Assembly (NCBI GenBank): GCA_048538275.1
Contig: JBLYPW010000001.1
Span: forward strand, 431,928-487,038
Direction of reading: 5' to 3'
DNA from: Candidatus Komeilibacteria bacterium
GTDB lineage: Bacteria > Patescibacteriota > Patescibacteriia > UBA1558
Length of the DNA: 55,111 nucleotides
Made by a program: the position numbers and the translations under genes. How positions within the stretch are numbered: the first letter of the stretch is position 1; every line of letters begins with the position of its first letter. The notes beneath the pieces are model-generated. The model did no database searches. It had not been told where the DNA came from and saw only the letters and a list, made by a program, of their open reading frames with translations. Shown here piece by piece: positions 7,928-54,969 of the stretch.

Positions 7928-9557
7928 ATTCTAAATTTATCTTATATAAAGCCATATTATCATAGCTAATATCAGTAATGCCTAATTCTAAATCATACTT
8001 TTTATAATCACGCTGATTCAAATAGGCAATATCAGCCAAATCATATTGCCAATCCCACAAATAAACAGGATATTGATCGGCTAATCTAGCCAAACGCTGC
8101 CAATCAATCGGATAAAAAAGATCATAGATCACCGTCCTGGTCGGCCAAAACACCTTATCACTACGACGAGCGATGATAATAGCATCAGTAGCAGTCTTCT
8201 CATTTACTAAAGTAGACATTTGTTCGTACCGTTCTATCTGATAATTCATAGCTTGCCAGCTTTCATCTCCATCCAATATAACTTGATGCCAGGCAAAGCT
8301 AAAACTAAATAAAAATAAAGCCGCCGCTGCGCTTATCCAGGCCAATTTATGTCGGGAAAAAATCCACTGCACAGACCAAGCAATAATGGGTAAGGTCATA
8401 ATATATATGGGCAACCAATAACGCACAAAGGATGTACCGATGGTCACAGCGCTGGGATCGGGATTGTCATGAAAGCTCCAACTGCCATAATAAATCACCA
8501 AGATCAAGGCAACGACGCCAAAAGAAAAAAGATAAGCCCACTGCGAACGGCTATTGGCTTGACGACGAATAGCCGCTAAGATAAATAAAAATAAAGCGAC
8601 TATAAAAATGACTGTCTGCCAATTAAAAAGATAATGCAGATAATTTGCCACATTACGACGCAAAACTTCTGGATGCCAACCAAAAGGTAAAAGATAATTT
8701 GTTAATGATTGCCAAGAACTAACTTCCTGCCCATTCACAAGCTGATAACCAATACTCCACGGTGAATTATAAAGCATGGTATTGTGATAAAACATTGGCA
8801 ATAGGGCGACTAAAGCAAAAATAGGTATAAACCAAACATAAGCCCAATGAATTTGACGCCAACGACATAGTAAAAATAATAAGCCCAACGGCAAAAGCCA
8901 GACTATTTCTGAGCTACGAACAAATAGAGCCAACCCAAACATTAATCCGGCAGCAGCATAAGACCACCAATAACGAGAGGATAAAGCTTGCCATAAAAAC
9001 CACAAAGCAGCGATGACCAATACCATTAATAAAACATTGGGCATCATGGCGCGTCCCGCATAATACCAATAGGCCGGTAATATCCACAATAATAAAGCGC
9101 TTAACAAAGCTGTTCGCCTATCAAAAATAGCTTTAATCAAACCATAAAACAATAATCCCCCTACAGCCGCCAGCAAAGGAGTCAACCAAATAATAATATC
9201 AGCGCGGTCAAACAGTCTGGCAATACTACCATATAACCAAGGTAAGCCAAGAAAGCCGGTCGGAGATAAATAATTATTAATAATACGCAAACTACGTGGC
9301 TTGACTATATCACCGCCCACTAAAGATGGTTCACTAAATTGGTGAAATTGGCCACTTTGATAAAACTGTGTGCTGGCCCAATAATTAGCCGTTTCATCCG
9401 GTGAATTAAAAATGGGCCGACCGGTTTTTTCCACATTTTGCAAACTAATAAAAGAGGGCCAACTATAAGCAACAAAAAAAATAATAGCTACCACCCCCAG
9501 AAAAATCCAATGCCAATCCAGGCTACCCTTAGTTTGTTTTAGACTGATGTTTAACAT
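7914..9557 (-). CDS. GT-C fold glycosyltransferase (ArnT/PMT, GT39-like)
   Basis: Polytopic 547-aa protein with an acidic first-loop motif (NSPDETANYWAS) typical of lipid-carrier-dependent GT-C enzymes. Confidence 0.6.
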   Translation of the reverse strand: MLNISLKQTKGSLDWHWIFLGVVAIIFFVAYSWPSFISLQNVEKTGRPIFNSPDETANYWASTQFYQSGQFHQFSEPSLVGGDIVKPRSLRIINNYLSPTGFLGLPWLYGSIARLFDRADIIIWLTPLLAAVGGLLFYGLIKAIFDRRTALLSALLLWILPAYWYYAGRAMMPNVLLMVLVIAALWFLWQALSSRYWWSYAAAGLMFGLALFVRSSEIVWLLPLGLLFLLCRWRQIHWAYVWFIPIFALVALLPMFYHNTMLYNSPWSIGYQLVNGQEVSSWQSLTNYLLPFGWHPEVLRRNVANYLHYLFNWQTVIFIVALFLFILAAIRRQANSRSQWAYLFSFGVVALILVIYYGSWSFHDNPDPSAVTIGTSFVRYWLPIYIMTLPIIAWSVQWIFSRHKLAWISAAAALFLFSFSFAWHQVILDGDESWQAMNYQIERYEQMSTLVNEKTATDAIIIARRSDKVFWPTRTVIYDLFYPIDWQRLARLADQYPVYLWDWQYDLADIAYLNQRDYKKYDLELGITDISYDNMALYKINLEYDGQ

Positions 9558-17058: not shown

Positions 17059-17090
17059 AAATAAGAAAAGTTAATACTAATTTATACGTC

Positions 17091-17212
17091 CACCCCGTCA
17101 GCTTAAGCTAACGAGGCCCGTCACGTCAGCTTAAGCTAACGAGGCCCGTCACGTCAGCTTAAGCTAACGAGGCCCGTCACGTCAGCTTAAGCTGACGTGA
17201 CCCATCTGACGG
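17091..17212. repeat. mosaic repeat cluster 1: 28-bp tandem unit GTCAGCTTAAGCTAACGAGGCCCGTCAC x3 plus a terminal perfect palindrome
   Basis: Units at 17097-17124, 17125-17152 and 17153-17180. The array ends in GTCACGTCAGCTTAAGCTGACGTGAC. Read directly. Confidence 0.9.
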
Positions 17213-20320: not shown

Positions 20321-20758
20321 GTCCGCCCCGTCAGACGGGCCTCGTCAGCTTAAGCTGACGTGACGGGCCTCGTCAGCTTAAGCTGACGTGACGGGCTTCC
20401 CCTCGTCATTTCTACAGAGCATAAACAAGCGGAGAAGCCTCTCAACACACGACTTCACAATAGACTTCTCCGCTTGTCCGCACTGCGTTTGGACAGCGGT
20501 CGAAGTGACAATGTATTGTACTTAGTTTTGTTATTCTGACCACAGCTCTCTATCCTTTCCCCTCGTCACTTCGACCGAACCATCATACCCCCTCCGTCAT
20601 TTCGCCAGAGTCATCATACTCCCTCCGTCACTTAGACTGAGTCATCATAACCCACCCGTCACTTCGACCGTAGTCAACATACCCCCTCCGTCACTTCGAC
20701 CGTAGTCAACATACCCCCTCCGTCACTTCGACCGAGCGCAAGCGAGCGGAGAAGTCTA
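20321..20758. repeat. mosaic repeat cluster 2
   Basis: Two 28-bp palindrome units (20337-20392), a degenerate Y/X hairpin composite (about 20402-20510) and module T. Then five to six tandem 30-32-bp V units (20559-20735), ending in module Y (20721-20757). Confidence 0.9.
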
Positions 20759-20806
20759 TATTATGCAAACGATAGTTAAACAAGCAACTATTACATAAAA
20801 CATTTA

Positions 20807-21115
20807 CTATAATTCATTGAATAAATCATGCCAATTAGGGTTAACACTATTAATAAGTTTAACTTTTTTACTCCTCCTCCATCTTTTAATTTGCTTCTCT
20901 CTACTTATTGCTTCCATCGGGGATTCAAATATTTCATAGTATAGTAGAATATGACAATGATACTTTTTAGTAAAACCATCATTAACGTTATTTCTATGCT
21001 CCATTACACGTCTAATTATATTGTTTGTCATGCCAATACATAATACCCTTGATTTGCTTGACATGATATAAACATAATACAACTTATAATAATCCCTATA
21101 TTTTTTCCAAAACAT
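20807..21115 (-). CDS. GIY-YIG nuclease family protein (URI domain, COG2827-like)
   Basis: 102 aa with YYVYIMSSKSRVLCIGMTNNIIRRVMEH and REKQIKRWRRSKK, both typical of small GIY-YIG proteins. Confidence 0.8.
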   Translation of the reverse strand: MFWKKYRDYYKLYYVYIMSSKSRVLCIGMTNNIIRRVMEHRNNVNDGFTKKYHCHILLYYEIFESPMEAISREKQIKRWRRSKKVKLINSVNPNWHDLFNEL

Positions 21116-21143
21116 TTTAATTTATATTATTTATATTACAGTA

Positions 21144-21340
21144 GTATTGCTATTAGACTTCTCCGCTCGTCCGCACTGCGTTTGGACATCGGTCGAAGTG
21201 ACGGGGAGGTGTGATGAGCAGACAAAGGCACCGTCAGACGCCGCAAGCCCCGTCAGACGAAACAGATCTAGTCTGACGGGGCAAGCCCCGTCAGACGCCG
21301 CAAGCCCCGTCAGACGAAACAGATCTAGTCTGACGGGGCA
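21144..21340. repeat. mosaic repeat cluster 3
   Basis: Module X at 21155-21203, followed by a 57-bp tandem duplication (period 21231 to 21288). Each copy contains a CCCCGTCAGAC-12 nt-GTCTGACGGGG hairpin. Confidence 0.9.
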
Positions 21341-21363
21341 AGCTCCTTTTGCTCCCCGCCCGA

Positions 21364-21397
21364 TAAAACAAAAAACAGGATCATGAAACGACCCTGT
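21364..21397 (-). terminator. intrinsic terminator downstream of 21421-22938
   Basis: Minus strand: ACAGGG-11 nt-TCCTGT followed by TTTTTTGTTTT. Confidence 0.6.
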
Positions 21398-23122: not shown

Positions 23123-23352
23123 TAGACTTCTCCGCTCGCTTACGCTCGGTCGAAGTGACGGAGGGGGTATGATGGCTCGGTCGAAGTGACGAGAGGGAAG
23201 GATAGAGGGCTGTGATCACAATAACAAAACTAAGCACAACCCATGGTCACTTCGACCGATGTCCAAACGCAGTGCGGACGAGCGGAGAAGTCTATTGTGG
23301 ATTCGTGCGCTGAAAGACTATTCTGCTCGTTTATGCTCTATCAATGTGATGG
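23123..23352. repeat. mosaic repeat cluster 4
   Basis: Module Y (23124-23160, +), module T (inverted), module X (23246-23294, inverted) and a degenerate Y arm. Confidence 0.9.
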
Positions 23353-23907: not shown

Positions 23908-23994
23908 ATTTTTATAATAAATAATAAATAATCAAAAAAGGGTCTGACGACCCTTTAAGCTATAATATAAAATCAAAGTCAGTTAGTCAAACCT

Positions 23995-24258
23995 CGCCCC
24001 GTCAGACTAGATCTATTTCGTCTGACGAGGCTCACCCCGTAAGACTGAGCCTGCCACGTCTGACGGGGCTTGCGGCGTCTGACGGTGCCTTTATCTGCTT
24101 ATAACACTTCCTCGTCACTTCGACCGATGTCCAAACGCAGTGCGGACGAGCGGAGAAGTCTATTGTGGATTCGTGTGTTGAGAGACTATTCTGCTCGTTT
24201 ATGCTCTATCGAAGTGACGAGGGGGAAGGATACAGAGCTGTGGTCAGAATAACAAAAC
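23995..24258. repeat. mosaic repeat cluster 5
   Basis: GTCAGAC/GTCTGAC hairpins, module X (24113-24161, inverted), a degenerate Y arm and module T (inverted). Abuts the higA stop codon. Confidence 0.9.
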
Positions 24259-31500: not shown

Positions 31501-32583
31501 TGAGGTACCGTTGGCAATATCAACTTTCAAGGTAACAGCCTTGGTACTGCCAGCTGAAACTGTAAACAGGCCATTGCTATTATTGAATGTCAATACACCA
31601 TCTGAAATGGAAGAATAACGAGCAATTAATTCATTGCCGTCATACAAATAAAAATCTGAAAAATCACTATCTGCTGAAGGGACTCCTTGGCGTTTGAATT
31701 TGACAGTATTAACTTGGATTGCTCCATCTGATGAAGCAGCAAAGTTAACAGTCATCATTTCAGCCATTGACTGAGCACCATCACCTGAAACTGCGTCAGC
31801 AATTAGTGTTGAGGAATCAGCACTACTTGAAGCCAAACCTACGGTCAAGCCGGTACCACCAACTGGAACACCAGAGCCGGCGTTACCACCTTGGGAAACG
31901 TCCATCAATGAGCTGTCAGCTGCGGAAATGGCGGAACCATCACTGTAAGCGCTTAGATCAGAGACAGTGATGATATAGTTGGCGTCATAACCATTAGCGC
32001 TCAAAGCATCCATAGATGCAAAAGGACGCTTGGCACCATCGGCGATCAAATAGATGGTATCGCTACCTTCCATTTTTACCAAGGAACCGGCTGGTACGTC
32101 GCCAGAAGCCAAATCAGAACCCACGGTGTATTGTGGGAAAAATACTTCGTTAATGTCATTCACCCGACTAGCCCAGTCAGCACCGTATAAACCGGCAGCG
32201 ATCTCTTCGCTAGGAATCCAGCGTAAGTTACCACTTGGTTCAACAGCGTAAACCTTGGCAGTATTAGGATGAGTGACCAATTTTGTACCCGCACGATACA
32301 AAACCATACCACCGTCGGCATAAGTGTCTAATTCTGCAACGCTCAATAACTGAACATTGGAGAAATCACTGTACCAACTAAAGTAGGTCTTGGCATCCGG
32401 GAATACATACTTCTTCATATCACTACCAATGTAGTAAACAGCGTCGCTGTTAGGTCCTTTTACCAAGGAACCGGCATCAACGGCAGCTTGCGCTACATTT
32501 GGAGTAACAAAACCTAGACCAAAAGTAGCTATAGTAGCTATGGTCACGGCAATGATGAAGCTTTTTTTAGCAAAATTTGCCAT
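28522..32583 (-). CDS. very large secreted/surface protein (S-layer or adhesin-like)
   Basis: 1353 aa with an N-terminal signal/anchor. Three N-terminal surface-repeat domains, then Ser/Thr/Ala/Gly-rich beta-type repeats. Strong AAGGAG Shine-Dalgarno. Confidence 0.75.
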   Translation of the reverse strand: MANFAKKSFIIAVTIATIATFGLGFVTPNVAQAAVDAGSLVKGPNSDAVYYIGSDMKKYVFPDAKTYFSWYSDFSNVQLLSVAELDTYADGGMVLYRAGTKLVTHPNTAKVYAVEPSGNLRWIPSEEIAAGLYGADWASRVNDINEVFFPQYTVGSDLASGDVPAGSLVKMEGSDTIYLIADGAKRPFASMDALSANGYDANYIITVSDLSAYSDGSAISAADSSLMDVSQGGNAGSGVPVGGTGLTVGLASSSADSSTLIADAVSGDGAQSMAEMMTVNFAASSDGAIQVNTVKFKRQGVPSADSDFSDFYLYDGNELIARYSSISDGVLTFNNSNGLFTVSAGSTKAVTLKVDIANGTSASRNMKFAILSSSDVVTASGATIEGTFPVTGNVMSTAQVSDLGKLTLASSSYSSTVDAGETDYELWRFSLAAADQNVQVKYLKFTNIGTVAADDLQNIKLEKNDGTQYGDTKAQLGSDGTLTFDLSANPISITKGNTEYFSLRGDIVGGTNRNFKFSVQQIYHLVATDVEYGVNIKPNQADSWTVIQAGGSTSISTGSMTVTRATDSPSGNVPIDGTDVTVAKVDFSAVGEDVKISSLPVKMAESTDPGADNAGLYQVSLHVDGSQIGTTTNLVANNTNYTFNFGSNFIVPAGETKTLVVKADIKDGDGDSWDADDAFTVTVVASSGSAQGVTSLATVSMTDQAGYLLTTTANTLSSAKNAAFAAGSSSNPYGVAGSSNVKVGSGVITAGSSEAVDITTITLGDASSAFDELQNVMLKKADGTQIGNTRATVSGGNTYSFNPSSSIRLNASESMVVNVFADVKSGATTGSVVGQLKISQVNGTGVDTNTSANDTSGATLQDVYFSTGGSLSVSLDGNSPDSMQLVTGSTGNHIATFRVEESSGAEDVTVSKIIVKNSTGADDTLINWALYDGDSGEQIGSTVPVTASGVATFNSVSWDLPAGAVKTFKVKADVSAYTAATENTANYAYLATGAGSAFEATGEGSGNISVNLTSAVNANSMKAFRTMLTATTKTPNNSGGSYGASQEVAKIGFTADSNYQAKLRAGTTVDEITDAVSPSGTSLGDGDWTAVDADDDGSTVGVDTTTPIYGTNVIRFTQGATTPVAANILRYTFDSSQDWSSYSKLGFWTRSSQTADNMTFTVTDDGGARASTTVNYANANVWQYVEVTLPTTSAEKDVISLINLTSATALASGDTVDVDNLRLYNDSLNLDISGNLGAVATTDGLAVYFKDSSGTTKMTGYLYPTSTSAATVEFVPTTDLTISSSEQVYTVVTNTNTLMATDDTNDQTLIVSMDLGGVSTAGDVAWYDGAVTATSPITWVSGAEDPITFSFSY

Positions 32584-32901
32584 ATAAATTAAATCTCCTT
32601 ATTAACTTATCAGTTATTCACTTATGCTACACAAGTCAAGAACAAATCCCCACTAGGGGGAGACTAGCCTTTACTTTGGTCAGTGACGCCCAATGCGTCC
32701 CGACCTTTACCGTACCAAAGCATCGGTGCTCAAGTTGGTAGGGTCGCTCAATCACCTAAAACAGGCAACTGAGAAATAAGTAAAAACAACCAATAAGTGT
32801 TTATCAACAATATCACTTATCTCCGCTCTTAAAATCGGGGAGAATAAGGATGATTGTTTGTCAAACTTTAGCCTACTACGCGAATTAAACTGTGTAATAG
32901 G

Positions 32902-32943
32902 CCATCCGTCATACCAATTTATAAATTGGTATGACGGATGGCA
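32902..32943. repeat. 42-bp perfect palindrome
   Basis: GCCATCCGTCATACCAATTTA|TAAATTGGTATGACGGATGGC, 6 nt downstream of the DUF5667 gene stop. No U-tract on either strand. Confidence 0.9.
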
Positions 32944-33984: not shown

Positions 33985-34370
33985 CGTCATAGTATCCTTG
34001 TGATACAGGGCTTTATCCTTTCCCTTGTCATTTCGACCGTAGTCACGCCCAGTCAGACGTGGCCTCGTCAGCTTAAGCTGACGTGACGGGCTTCCTCTCG
34101 TCATTTCGACCCAACTATCATTTTCTTTGTCACTTCGACCGAGCGCAAGCGAGCGGAGAAGTCTCTCAGCACACCACTCCCTTATAGACTTCTCCACTCG
34201 TCCGCACTGCGTTTGGACATCGGTCGAAGTGACGAGGAAGTGTTATAAGCAGATAAAGACCCTGTCAGACGTGGCAGGCTCAGTCTGACGGGGTGAGCCT
34301 CGTCAGACGGCAAACATCTAGTCTGACGGGGCGAGCCTCGTCAGACGGCATATATCTAGTCTGACGGGGG
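33985..34370. repeat. mosaic repeat cluster 6
   Basis: Module T, palindrome Z (about 34062-34091), a Y/X hairpin composite (34128-34234) and three GTCAGAC-12 nt-GTCTGAC hairpins (34263-34366). Confidence 0.9.
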
Positions 34371-34945: not shown

Positions 34946-35294
34946 TATTTAAGACGTCATTAATAGCTTAATGTTACAGTAAAATTTCCTTACAATGTAC
35001 AGTATTATAATAAAAAAAAGCAGAATATTCCACTTAGTTTATCTACAGTTTTAGACTATTTTTTGGTCATAATCTTACAAGAACAATACTTTACCACGTC
35101 CTACCGTCTATGTCAATGGGGAGATATTATATATACATAATTTTACATTATACTTTATAAGGTGTAGAATAGTGTAGAAGTTCTAGTAAGAATATTGTTA
35201 AATCACTATTTTATATTCATTTGAATCAACCATTATACTCCCCTATCACTTTGAGCGGGTTATTGCTGTATTATGACAATTATTCCTCACCTCA

Positions 35295-35596
35295 CCCCGT
35301 CACTTTGACTGTAATTCATGGGTATTGCTATTAGACTTCTCCGCTCGTCCGCACTGCGTTTGGACATCGGTCGAAGTGACGAGGAAGTGTGATGAGCAGA
35401 GACAAAGGACCCTGTCAGACGGGCCTCGTCAGCTTAAGCTGACGTGACGGGCTTCCCCTCGTCATTTCAACCGAGCAATCATACCTCCCCCACCGTCACT
35501 TCGACCGAGCGCAAGCGAGCGGAGAAATCTCTCACCACACCACTCCCTTATAGACTCTCCACTCGTCCTCACTGTGTTTGACAGCGGTCAAAGTGA
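35295..35596. repeat. mosaic repeat cluster 7 (left arm of the ~290-bp inverted repeat)
   Basis: X (35333-35381), linker, palindrome Z (about 35420-35452) and a Y/X composite (35494-35596). 35295-35587 is the reverse complement of 40819-41108. Confidence 0.9.
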
Positions 35597-36596: not shown

Positions 36597-36772
36597 CATA
36601 TGGGCCTGTAAAGCCTATGACATAGCGCAAGGATAGCGCAATCATACAACGGGTATTTACCCGTAAAACTGCTATAAAGCAGTCCTGTATGGTCGCCTGG
36701 ATACGTGGGATTATCCTGAGCAACCAACACAATTGAAAAGGGCGGGACAGCAATGTTACTGCCCTTTTTTAT
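36597..36772 (+). ncRNA. candidate structured small RNA D
   Basis: TTGACA 36562-36567, 17 nt, TAATAT 36585-36590. Hairpins ACGGGT/ACCCGT and CTGCT-ATAA-AGCAG. GGGC...GCCC terminator plus T6 (36737-36772). Confidence 0.45.
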
Positions 36773-36827
36773 TTCCAGTGAACATTTATACAAAACAACC
36801 TGTCTTTAAAATAGACGGGTTTTATAT

Positions 36828-37706
36828 TTACTTGCGATTGAGACTGGCAAGCCATTGCTTTGGATTATCTTTTATATATTCCCTAATTCTTTCCAAATCA
36901 TCATCGTCTCCTATGATGTGTTCATAATAATTTCTTTGCCAAGCAAAATCACACAAACCCAATTTGTGTATTGCTTTGGATGTCATCATTTTATATTTGC
37001 CAATTAACATGGGTAATACCATACGTCGCCTATTTTTTATCATTTTTTTACGTAGAGGCAATTCATGAATTGCCTCTACGGGTTGGGGCATCATACGTTC
37101 ACACCCATCATGAATTGCCTCTACGGATGACATAATATGGTTTGGCGCATCATGAATTGCCTCTACGGGTTGGGGCATCATACGTTCACACCCACCATGA
37201 ATTGCCTCTACGGGTTGGGGCATCATACGTTCACACCCATCATGAATTGCCTCTACGGATGACATAATATGGTTTGGCGCATCATGAATTGCCTCTACGG
37301 GTTGGGGCATCATACGTTCACGCCCATCATGAATTCCCTCTACGGATGACATAATATGTTCACGCCCACCATGAATTGCCTCTACGGATGACATAATATG
37401 GTTTGGCGCACCATGAATTGATTTTAAAATCTGAATAATGAGATGGATATGATTAGGCATGATAATATATTCATCTAATTTTACATGCTTGAATTGCGCG
37501 CTTAATTTCTCTAAATTATCCTGTGCAATCTGACCGTATCTATTTAATAACACCCTATATTGTTTTACCTTGCCAAAATATTTTCTTTTATTTTTTACAC
37601 AAATAGTAATAAAATAATATCCCGGCCTGGAATAATCATAAAACGGCAAGCGTAATGACTGCGTTCTATATTTATTTTTATACAAAGCCGATTTATATTT
37701 TGCCAT
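36828..37706 (-). CDS. IS200-like Y1 (HUH) transposase, REP-associated tyrosine transposase-like, with internal repeat expansion
   Basis: YDYSRPGYYFITICVKN N-terminus, HUH motif MPNHIHLII and catalytic-Tyr region FAWQRNYYEHII. Eight VEAIH-containing 14-15-aa repeats lie between them. Terminator hairpin at 36797-36822. Confidence 0.8.
   Translation of the reverse strand: MAKYKSALYKNKYRTQSLRLPFYDYSRPGYYFITICVKNKRKYFGKVKQYRVLLNRYGQIAQDNLEKLSAQFKHVKLDEYIIMPNHIHLIIQILKSIHGAPNHIMSSVEAIHGGREHIMSSVEGIHDGRERMMPQPVEAIHDAPNHIMSSVEAIHDGCERMMPQPVEAIHGGCERMMPQPVEAIHDAPNHIMSSVEAIHDGCERMMPQPVEAIHELPLRKKMIKNRRRMVLPMLIGKYKMMTSKAIHKLGLCDFAWQRNYYEHIIGDDDDLERIREYIKDNPKQWLASLNRK
37050..37425. repeat. in-frame 42/45-nt minisatellite inside the Y1 transposase gene, with a terminal 30-bp palindrome
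   Basis: Core GAATTGCCTCTACGG starts at 37067, 37112, 37154, 37199, 37244, 37286, 37331 (1 mismatch) and 37373, with a partial copy at 37414. Perfect palindrome CGTAGAGGCAATTCATGAATTGCCTCTACG at 37050-37079. Confidence 0.9.
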
Positions 37707-40814: not shown

Positions 40815-41254
40815 TGCCCCGCTGTCAAACGCAGTGCGGATGAGTGGAGAGTCTATAAAGGAGTGGTGTGCTGAGAGACTTCTCCGCTCGCTTGCGCTCG
40901 GTCGAAGTGACGGAGGGGGTATGATGGCTTGGTTGAAATGACGAGGGGAAGCCCGTCACGTCAGCTTAAGCTGACGAGGCCCGTCTGACAGGGTCCTTTG
41001 TCTCTACTCATCACACTTCCTCGTCACTTCGACCGATGTCCAAACGCAGTGCGGACGAGCGGAGAAGTCTAATAGCAATACCCATGAATTACAGTCAAAG
41101 TGACGGGGCTTGCGGCGTCTGACGGGGCTTGCGGCGTCTGACGGTGCCCTTATCTGCTCATCACACTTCCTCGTCACTTCGACCGATGTCCAAACGCAGT
41201 GCGGACGAGCGGAGAAGTCTAATAGCAATACCCATGAATTACAGTCAAAGTGAC
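40815..41254. repeat. mosaic repeat cluster 8 (right arm of the inverted repeat plus a 98-bp tandem duplication)
   Basis: 40819-41108 is the reverse complement of 35295-35587. 41007-41104 is repeated exactly at 41157-41254. Confidence 0.9.
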
Positions 41255-46645: not shown

Positions 46646-46900
46646 ATTTTTATAATAATGCAATTAAATACCGTTCAAGCACAACGGTGTAGCATAGGTT
46701 GACCGTTGAAAAATATAGCATAATTATTGCTATACGTCAACCTAAAGCATTATTATACTAACATATATGAAAAATTATGTCAAGAGCATGTGGCTGTAAA
46801 ATATTAACGGTGGCGCAAAACTAAAAAGTAGTGGTAAAATTAGCTAAGAAAATGAGTTTTCCAACTCAGCTAAAGAATAACCACTACTTTCTGCAGCGAT

Positions 46901-46930
46901 TAACCTTGAAGGTCTAGACCTTCAAGGTTA
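46901..46930. repeat. 30-bp perfect palindrome downstream of secF
   Basis: TAACCTTGAAGGTCT|AGACCTTCAAGGTTA, 12 nt after the secF stop. No U-tract. Possibly a terminator or a binding site. Confidence 0.85.
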
Positions 46931-46942
46931 AAATTATTAAAA

Positions 46943-47869
46943 TTATGGCTGTTTTTTCCACCCCTTATACCACACCAATAATAATGGGCTGGCCAAGAAA
47001 ATTGAAGAATAAGTACCAATCACAATACCAAATAGCAAGGCTAGAATAAAGTGCTGAATAGAGGCGCCACCAAAGAGATAAACCGCCAATAATACTATCA
47101 TTGTCGTCAATGAAGTATTTAGAGAACGCACCAAAGTCTCATTTATACTATTATTAACAATATCCGAGAAAGTCTGGTTTTGATGACGAAACAAATTCTC
47201 ACGGGTACGATCAAAAGTAACAATGGTGTCATGTACGGAAAATCCCATTATAGTCAATAAAGCGGTAACAAATAATGAATCAATCTGATAACCCAAATAA
47301 TGACCTAAAATGCTAAAAAGACCAATAGTAATAAAAATATCATGCGCCAAAGCAATGATTGCGGAAATGCCATATTTCCAGGAAGCGACCGGATAAGATA
47401 CCTTGCGAAAAGCAAAGGCAATATAAGCCACAATCGCTAATAAAACCCAAATGATAGCGCTCAAGGCTTTAGACTTCAGCTCCGCTCCAATGGTCGGGCC
47501 AATTGATTCAAAACGCTCTTCCTGAATTTGACTGATGATATTGCCATCCTCATCAACTTGATGAAAGTTTTCTTCTAAAGTCTGCAAAACCGCTTGGTGT
47601 TGTTCCTCAGTCAATGACTCTAATCTAATCAATACTAAATTATCAGTGCTGGGCTGCACCTGTACGCCATTATAGCCGGCAGTCGTCAAAGTCTGCGCAA
47701 TATTCTCATTACTGATAGCATTGTCATCGATGGACACTTCCATTAAACTCCCGCCCGTAAAATCTATGCCCCAGTTTAAACCCCATTGCCACAAAGCAAT
47801 AAAACTTATAATGACAAGTATGACTGATATGCCAAACCAATATTTTCTTTTGCCAATAATATTAAACAT
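46943..47869 (-). CDS. secF: protein translocase subunit SecF
   Basis: 308 aa. GIDFTGGSL motif and six TM helices. Overlaps the secD stop by 8 nt. Confidence 0.9.
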   Translation of the reverse strand: MFNIIGKRKYWFGISVILVIISFIALWQWGLNWGIDFTGGSLMEVSIDDNAISNENIAQTLTTAGYNGVQVQPSTDNLVLIRLESLTEEQHQAVLQTLEENFHQVDEDGNIISQIQEERFESIGPTIGAELKSKALSAIIWVLLAIVAYIAFAFRKVSYPVASWKYGISAIIALAHDIFITIGLFSILGHYLGYQIDSLFVTALLTIMGFSVHDTIVTFDRTRENLFRHQNQTFSDIVNNSINETLVRSLNTSLTTMIVLLAVYLFGGASIQHFILALLFGIVIGTYSSIFLASPLLLVWYKGWKKQP

Positions 47870-54532: not shown

Positions 54533-54969
54533 AAGCCTAAGAGGGCTGATAAGCCGAATTCTGTCCCTTTATCCAAAGACAAAGGTGATGATCATCTATC
54601 TAGCCGCCACATTGCTGCGACGATCAATAGCGTTCAACCCGTCTCTGCCCAAGGCAGAGAACCTACTTGAACTTGCACCGAGTAGAAGTTTACCTAGCCG
54701 ACTATGTCACCATAATCGCTGGTGGTCTCTTACCAGCTCAACCCACAGGCCGACTGATTCCCGTCTGGGAATACCACCGTTTCACCCATCACCCAGCTGC
54801 TGTTAAGCGACTGGGCTGGTCTATTCTCTGTTGCACTTGTCCTCTATCGCTAAAAACAATAGGGTCGGTGTTACCGACTACCCACACCGTTATAAAAACG
54901 GCGCAAAAATGGTGTTCGGACTTTCCTCTCATCCTCATGAATGAGCGATCATCTTGCCCTCTTAAGCTT
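54533..54969 (-). ncRNA. rnpB: RNase P RNA, bacterial type A
   Basis: Minus strand carries GAGGAAAGTCCGAAC, GGGTGAAACGGTGG, GGTAAGAGACCACCAGC, GGTAAAC...GGTGCAAG and ACAGAATTCGGCTTATC. The 5' AAGCTTAAGAGGGC pairs with the 3' GCCCTCTTAGGCTT (P1). Upstream TTGACA (54998-55003), 18 nt, TATATT (54974-54979). T-tract after the 3' end. Confidence 0.9.

Follow-up and report, generated by a model that had tools for sequence, protein, structure and literature searches.

The window, which is the whole 55,111 nt stretch of DNA analysed here, includes at positions 36828-37706 of the minus strand an open reading frame (ORF) for a protein of 292 aa. From the ORF itself, profile searches, alignments and a structure search, it was assigned as a tnpA_REP (RAYT) gene resembling TnpAY1 subclass 2.4. 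The minus strand carries nearly all of the long ORFs in the window (1-55111), namely 34 of the 36 with 150 aa or more, the RAYT gene being counted among them, and GC skew is negative over most of the 33-42 kb interval. About 55 nt 3' of the RAYT stop codon, an imperfect G+C-rich hairpin (36741-36775) with A/T runs on its flanks (AAAAGGGCGGGACAGCAATGTTACTGCCCTTTTTT) looks, from its sequence, like a bidirectional intrinsic terminator.

The RAYT product matched Pfam Y1_Tnp with an E-value of 1.3e-7, which passes the cut-off. The score against NCBIfam REP_Tyr_transpos (54 bits) fell under the 80-bit cut-off because an insert splits the match in two, and that against NCBIfam transpos_IS200 was 19.8 bits (cut-off 55). 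A total of 5,449 significant homologues were identified, the best of which are 170-230 aa in length and belong to Patescibacteria, Calditrichota, Balneolaceae, Fusobacteria, Planctomycetota, cyanobacteria and others; several are annotated as 'REP element-mobilizing transposase RayT'. Escherichia coli TnpA_REP (4ER8) was the sole sequence match in the PDB, and a Foldseek search with the predicted model retrieved solely the ISDra2 and IS608 transposases (IS200/IS605) and 4ER8. The Pfam match, the motifs described below, 4ER8 and the Foldseek result thus support the description of the gene as a RAYT-like Y1 transposase in the initial annotation.

The HUH, WQ and Y---NP motifs of the protein match invariant columns in an alignment of 83 homologues. 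The HUH codons (MPNHIH), placed by the ORF and the alignment, occupy 37443-37460 on the minus strand, directly 5' of the repeat array; NHIH corresponds to residues 85-88, and the columns for N85, H86 and H88 in the PNHIHLII segment are invariant or nearly so. The codons from the W motif (WQRNYYEH, residues 256-263, GTAG recognition) to the Y motif (YIKDNP, catalytic Tyr) lie at 36867-36941 on the minus strand, as located by alignment and by comparison with 4ER8, and W256 and Q257 are invariant. In the alignment with the E. coli protein, W94-H101 fall opposite WQRNYYEH, and DYIYINP, which holds Y115, the counterpart of Y277 here, falls opposite REYIKDNP. In E. coli TnpA_REP, W94-H101 are the GTAG-recognition residues and Y115 is the catalytic Tyr (PMC6006769). 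RNYYEHII, taken initially for the catalytic-Tyr region, was therefore misassigned: it belongs to the GTAG-recognition W motif, and the catalytic Tyr is Y277.

TnpAY1 subclass 2.4, which equals Bertels group 4, was defined by Quentin, Siguier, Chandler and Fichant in 2018 (BMC Genomics 19:475, Figs S6, S7B and S10; PMC6006769). Its members have the HuH motif NH[IFV]H, the W motif WQ, the Y motif YIxNNP and a median length of 194 aa, and are further characterised by an 8 aa insertion at the end of alphaB (Table 1 therein) and by a variable insertion between beta3 and alphaC that is peripheral in the structural model (PMC6006769). In-frame 'long' or 'double foot' REPs (5' GT[AG]G and 3' C[TC]AC) have been reported in genes of this subclass already, and its length heterogeneity is explained by short DNA repeats (PMC6006769). 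The protein encoded here shares with the subclass NH[IFV]H, WQ, Y---NP, the insertion between beta3 and alphaC, and the in-frame double-foot REP. It departs from the norm in carrying eight half-REP units, in its unusually large size (292 aa versus the median of 194 aa) and in the sequence of its Y motif, YIKDNP, where Y277, N281 and P282 conform to Y---NP but D replaces the first N of the YIxNNP consensus. The host looks like a bacterium with a small, AT-rich genome, and the best matches are from Patescibacteria. Judged by its motifs, the gene belongs to subclass 2.4 of TnpAY1 (Bertels group 4) and encodes a tyrosine transposase associated with REPs.

Like E. coli TnpA_REP, this RAYT combines the HUH/Tyr fold with a WQxxxxEH segment recognising GTAG, a Tyr in Y---NP and a GTAG-tagged hairpin as presumed substrate. 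The E. coli enzyme differs in that it belongs to subclass 2.2, is 165 aa long and has no REP in its gene, its REPs being bulged, extragenic and located at the flanks of the gene. Unlike TnpA of IS200/IS605 elements (subclass 1.1), which has Y---Q, a length of ~150 aa and subterminal hairpins at the IS ends, the RAYT has Y---NP, and hairpins marking IS ends are absent from its locus.

Alignments with homologues place the array as an insertion that begins shortly after the HUH strand and ends before the helix RRRMxLPKIIGxFK, and so agree with its initial description as a linker, expanded in frame, that joins the HUH motif to the C-terminal catalytic half. The product had also rightly been called long for its family, since homologues are typically 170-230 aa. 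The insert adds 102 aa, and removal of 306 nt (seven extra units) would leave 190 aa, against the family median of 194 aa. In an AlphaFold2 model built from an alignment of 83 sequences, pLDDT exceeds 90 at residues ~21-95 and ~225-285 and is 43-55 at ~97-220, where secondary structure is nearly absent. The prediction, which answers the earlier proposal to check whether the core remains foldable, is that the HUH/Tyr core does so, with the array forming a disordered peripheral loop. We infer that the RAYT with its insert retains enzymatic activity.

In-frame REP and repeat array

A complete 'double-foot' REP (5' GTAG...CTAC 3') lies in frame at 37051-37080 on the minus strand, as located by palindrome and frame analysis. 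It is a perfect 30 nt palindrome, CGTAGAGGCAATTCATGAATTGCCTCTACG, with arms of 15 + 15 nt and no loop, and encodes VEAIHELPLR; the REP in the form GTAGAGGCAATTCATGAATTGCCTCTAC is translated as V-E-A-I-H-E-L-P-L. The palindrome arises where the last core of the array abuts its own inverse. It counts as a double foot because GTAG itself pairs with CTAC, and the tag is at the foot of the palindromic stem, as in GTAG REPs sensu Di Nocera et al. The initial annotation, which reported a GTAG-type REP hairpin within the coding sequence of the transposase itself, was correct on this point and on the sequence and translation of the palindrome, whereas its coordinates (37050-37079) were one base off.

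The REP stands at one end of a single tandem array identified by TRF at 37063-37420 with periods of 45, 87 and 132 nt, the 132 nt period giving 94% matches. On the coding strand there are eight copies of the 16-mer GTAGAGGCAATTCATG, one of them with a single mismatch, plus one mirrored copy, as compared with 0.6 occurrences expected by chance, and this count was reached in none of 100 shuffles. Spacings between successive cores are 42, 45, 42, 45, 45, 42 and 45 nt, in frame 0 throughout. As all are multiples of three, the eight in-frame units of 42 or 45 nt noted previously, and an ORF that stays open at 292 aa, are both confirmed.

TRF and alignment of the units resolved seven full units at about 37081-37385 on the minus strand, each of 42 or 45 nt and composed of the REP left arm GTAGAGGCAATTCATG and a spacer of 26 or 29 nt. 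They are preceded at 37386-37430 (minus strand, unit alignment) by a partial first (ninth) unit that has of the arm solely CAATTCATG, followed by a type-B spacer, and that forms the upstream boundary of the array. In sum, the array consists of eight left half-REPs and then one complete REP. There are two types of spacer, and one unit is a mosaic of both. Unit 3 matches unit 6 exactly, unit 4 likewise matches unit 7, and a 132 nt higher-order block is repeated at 98% identity. Beyond the pairing of arms, no structure was detected in the array spacers (ssDNA and RNA folding z-scores of -1.6 and -2.3), and no Rfam family overlaps the repeat region. A CRISPR-like 'repeat + spacer' reading was rejected, as the spacers are of two types, are themselves repeated, and are all in frame within an ORF. 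The resemblance of the spacer peptide PNHIM to PNHIH of the HUH motif was taken as chance (DNA match of ~10/15 nt by eye), and a literature search for the loop peptide (AIHELPL and similar) returned irrelevant matches only.

Within the window, which covers 55 kb of a contig of at least 487 kb, the REP is an orphan. No cognate GT[AG]G-footed hairpin was found in the flanks of the RAYT gene (±1000 nt) or elsewhere in the 55 kb, a palindrome scan of the whole window gave no GTAG-footed palindrome besides that in the RAYT gene, and no good copy of GTAGAGGCAATTCATG occurs in the window outside this gene. This distinguishes the locus from a typical REPtron, as the cognate REP is neither flanking nor dispersed in the 55 kb. 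Searches for the array elsewhere were also negative: the protein is the only member of its cluster and is carried by one contig, and a 24-mer spanning the arm/spacer junction had no matches in metagenomes. Relatives with the same repeat as a stable domain, which would have spoken against the initial reading, were sought and none was found; the next-best protein is at most ~50% identical and is devoid of the units.

Internal palindromes in homologous genes

Eighty homologous loci were fetched from genomes of many phyla, and the DNA of the interval between the HUH and W motifs was analysed in 61 genes. Perfect palindromes with arms of at least 9 nt were counted, with 240 nt of N-terminal coding sequence as the control. 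Such a palindrome was present between the two motifs in 43 of the 61 genes, compared with 1/61 in the control, and the 43 palindromes represent 42 distinct sequences, examples being GTAGAGACGCATTGCAATGCGTCTCTAC, GTAGGGGCGAAAAATTTTTCGCCCCTAC, GTAGAGACGTTGCATGCAACGTCTCTAC and GTAGGGGCGGGTTTGAAACCCGCCCCTAC. Among the 21 cases with a GT[AG]G foot, 19 have the foot in codon phase 0. Many homologues include at the identical position the peptide V[GE]AIHELPL[QR], which is encoded by GTAG(R)GGCAATTCATGAATTGCC(Y)CTAC. Compensated variants that alter the peptide were also found, namely GAG/CCT in the window, GGG/CCC in locus L019, GCG/TCG in L033 and ATA/TAT in L062. Given these compensated, peptide-changing variants and the 42 different sequences, the loop peptide follows the DNA palindrome and not the reverse.

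In many homologous loci (e.g. L023, L073, L046, L047, L062 and L006) the same palindrome also occurs just outside the gene, as in a REPtron. When metagenome contigs were scanned for exact copies of GTAGRGGCAATTCATGAATTGCCYCTAC, at least 120 stretches matched. The context was read for 84 matches: 83 are outside RAYT ORFs, mostly in short spurious ORFs or intergenic, and one is inside (L082). As the metagenome copies are mostly extragenic, the palindrome type of the window represents a genuine dispersed REP. The RAYT gene of L082 (Ga0315298_1000003, about 8800-9410) includes an array of 18 nt left arms encoding NVGAVQ twice and NVGAIQ twice, followed by NVGAIHELPLQ, and a second full REP copy is located 430 nt away. 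L082 is the closest architectural analogue of the array in the window.

Extra left arms were found only upstream of the complete REP (the window, L044, L009, L063, L006, L008, L034, L053, L066 and L082) and extra right arms only downstream (L068, L078, L080, L051, L052 and L055), whereas whole-REP duplications occur in L004, L037, L039 and L065. This polarity of the half-REP arrays suggests that breakpoints tend toward the hairpin apex. In L019 and L010, the internal REP lies inside a far longer palindrome of the coding sequence with arms of 25-26 nt (e.g. ATAACCCAGCCGTAGGGGCAATTCATGAATTGCCCCTACGGCTGGGTTAT). The annotated N-terminal extension of homologue P0017 includes a second VGAIHELPLQ, which probably reflects a REP located just 5' of the true start.

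Palindromic elements within genes are known from other systems. Di Nocera et al. (2013) described the GTAG and CGTC superfamilies of REPs, including intragenic REPs (PMC3733652); a GTAG-tagged REP consists of a palindromic stem (5-13 bp or more) with the tag at its foot, and is found in many dispersed, mostly extragenic copies (PMC3733652). The RAYT gene resembles the intragenic REPs outlined there and the Rickettsia palindromic elements of Ogata et al. (2000, as cited by Di Nocera et al.), where in-frame palindromes are tolerated in loops and linkers. In the cases given in those accounts, however, the palindromes lie in unrelated host genes, whereas here the palindrome is in the gene for its own presumed transposase, with position and codon phase fixed family-wide. 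The in-gene REP with its array is thus a kind of feature that has been documented already, of which the member studied here is strongly expanded. The novelty implied by the initial annotation was overstated, as in-frame REPs in subclass 2.4 genes were reported before (PMC6006769), and no new kind of system is revealed by the RAYT array. The locus rather presents a clean and extreme case of a documented oddity, a RAYT with a surface loop encoded by its own REP, and adds to the known in-gene REPs one from an AT-rich genome in which dispersed copies are not visible.

Origin of the array and possible role of the internal REP

The array has most probably arisen in a subclass 2.4 RAYT gene with a loop-encoding in-frame REP, through amplification of a 42 nt segment by slippage or unequal recombination. 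In subclass 2.4, the surface loop between beta3 and alphaC, just past the HUH strand, is typically encoded by an in-frame 'double-foot' REP. The segment amplified here would be CAATTCATG...GTAGAGG (42 nt), bounded by two copies of the 9 nt direct repeat CAATTCATG, and in this phase the array comprises ~8.2 copies with unique sequence on either side. The putative single-copy ancestor can be written as ...AAAAT-CAATTCATG-GTGCGCCAAACCATATTATGTCATCCGTAGAGG-CAATTCATG-AATTGCCTCTACG, where the downstream copy of CAATTCATG coincides with the inner left arm and the apex of the REP, and the upstream copy could have seeded slippage. Slipped-strand mispairing classically acts on segments of this kind, with a short direct repeat at each end. 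From the anatomy of the array, slipped-strand mispairing or unequal recombination is the likely mechanism, probably aided by hairpin formation, and the palindrome at the 3' border of the 42 nt segment would favour stalling. Later events would have included divergence into 42 and 45 nt types, recombination that produced the mosaic units, and recent re-duplication of the 132 nt block. The divergence of the units, the mosaics and the 98% identity of the re-duplicated 132 nt block together suggest continued unequal exchange.

Like slippage-made coding minisatellites, the array has units of 42/45 nt that stay in frame, a higher-order repeat, mosaics and a partial boundary unit with a short direct repeat; it is unlike these in that the unit was seeded by a REP hairpin arm and the array ends in a perfect palindrome. 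Points that count against this account of the gene and its array are that no cognate REP occurs in the flanks or the 55 kb, that the Y motif is YIKDNP and not YIxNNP, and that the REP_Tyr_transpos score of 54 bits is below the 80-bit cut-off.

The initial annotation offered self-targeted activity, replication slippage and a hypervariable linker as possible causes, and of these the last two fit the anatomy best. Self-targeting would mean that the transposase itself made the array, through cleavage and strand transfer at the internal REP that duplicated half-REPs. The REP does sit within the gene of its own transposase, enzymes of this family cut ssDNA beside GTAG hairpins (PMC8266576), and half-REP arrays with breakpoints at the hairpin apex recur in several homologues. 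However, the sites at which TnpA_REP is known to cleave are CT or CA dinucleotides on the 5' or 3' side of the hairpin and not its apex (PMC8266576), hence we consider transposase-made arrays a minor and unlikely alternative. A self-targeted origin also has no specific support: the 9 nt direct repeat fully accounts for the borders of the units, the window includes no other REP copies to show activity, and the mosaic units resemble homologous exchange.

Short-read assembly of near-identical 42/45 nt units might instead have created or distorted the copy number and unit order. The array (~360 nt), with a 132 nt block that is 98% identical, exceeds typical short reads, and the protein is found on one contig only, with no independent copy. 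Against this, the reading frame is held through all units, the unit variants follow a non-trivial mosaic order, both flanking catalytic halves are intact, and comparable arrays occur in homologues from independent assemblies, making an artefact very unlikely. It is more doubtful still, to the point of being hardly credible, that the repeats represent a selected protein-level domain, such as an interaction module, and not a by-product of DNA repeat dynamics. The frame is preserved, and an insert at this site is peripheral and exposed (Quentin et al., PMC6006769), but the region is of low pLDDT and is predicted to lack secondary structure, its unit sequence is common to no homologue, and the loop peptides of homologues track whichever palindrome is present, in 42 sequences, such that DNA dictates the peptide.

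A tentative and rather doubtful suggestion is that the internal REP is a cis element kept at the DNA level, carried along with the transposase gene as a portable 'seed' or a hairpin for self-recognition. Room is left for this because most subclass 2.4 genes have the palindrome in the same loop and codon phase and yet in 42 sequences, because the perfect palindrome is kept via compensatory changes that alter amino acids, and because the REP persists here with no visible dispersed REPs. If such a hairpin is indeed retained, the polar half-REP arrays would mark places where its apex repeatedly underwent breakage or template switching. Selection on the hairpin could explain the fixed position and phase and the 42 perfect palindromes, and so, equally well, could repeated replacement from dispersed REPs of the host. 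As a compact test case provided by nature, the locus lends itself to asking whether the internal REP has a function (as a seed or autoregulatory site), whether local tandem amplification is driven by REP hairpins, and how large a disordered insertion the HUH/Tyr fold can accommodate.

Other palindromic and structured elements in the window

At least eight intergenic spots (17068-17206, 20334-20783, 21098-21373, 23124-23349, 23975-24258, 34027-34369, 35276-35580 and 40826-41221) carry clusters of palindromes that are G+C-rich and CGTC-tagged, together with short tandem arrays; these bear no sequence relationship to the GTAG REP of the RAYT gene. Members of these clusters include CGTCAGCTTAAGCTGACG with a 28 nt period, CGTCAGAC...GTCTGACG with periods of 19, 38 and 57 nt, GTCACTTCGACCG with a 31-32 nt period, and inverted copies of TCTCCGCTCGTCCGCACTGCGTTTG. 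In sequence, the clusters resemble the CGTC REP superfamily and BIME-like mosaics; these are reported to lack a dedicated transposase (Di Nocera et al. 2013, PMC3733652).

The sole Rfam match in the window is a bacterial class A RNase P RNA (RF00010, 190 bits) at 54534-54964 on the minus strand. Two further perfect palindromes lie between genes, one of 42 nt (GCCATCCGTCATACCAATTTATAAATTGGTATGACGGATGGC, 32901-32942) in the stretch separating the ORFs that end at 32583 and 32950, and one of 32 nt (TTAACCTTGAAGGTCTAGACCTTCAAGGTTAA, 46900-46931) in the intergenic gap at 46663-46943.
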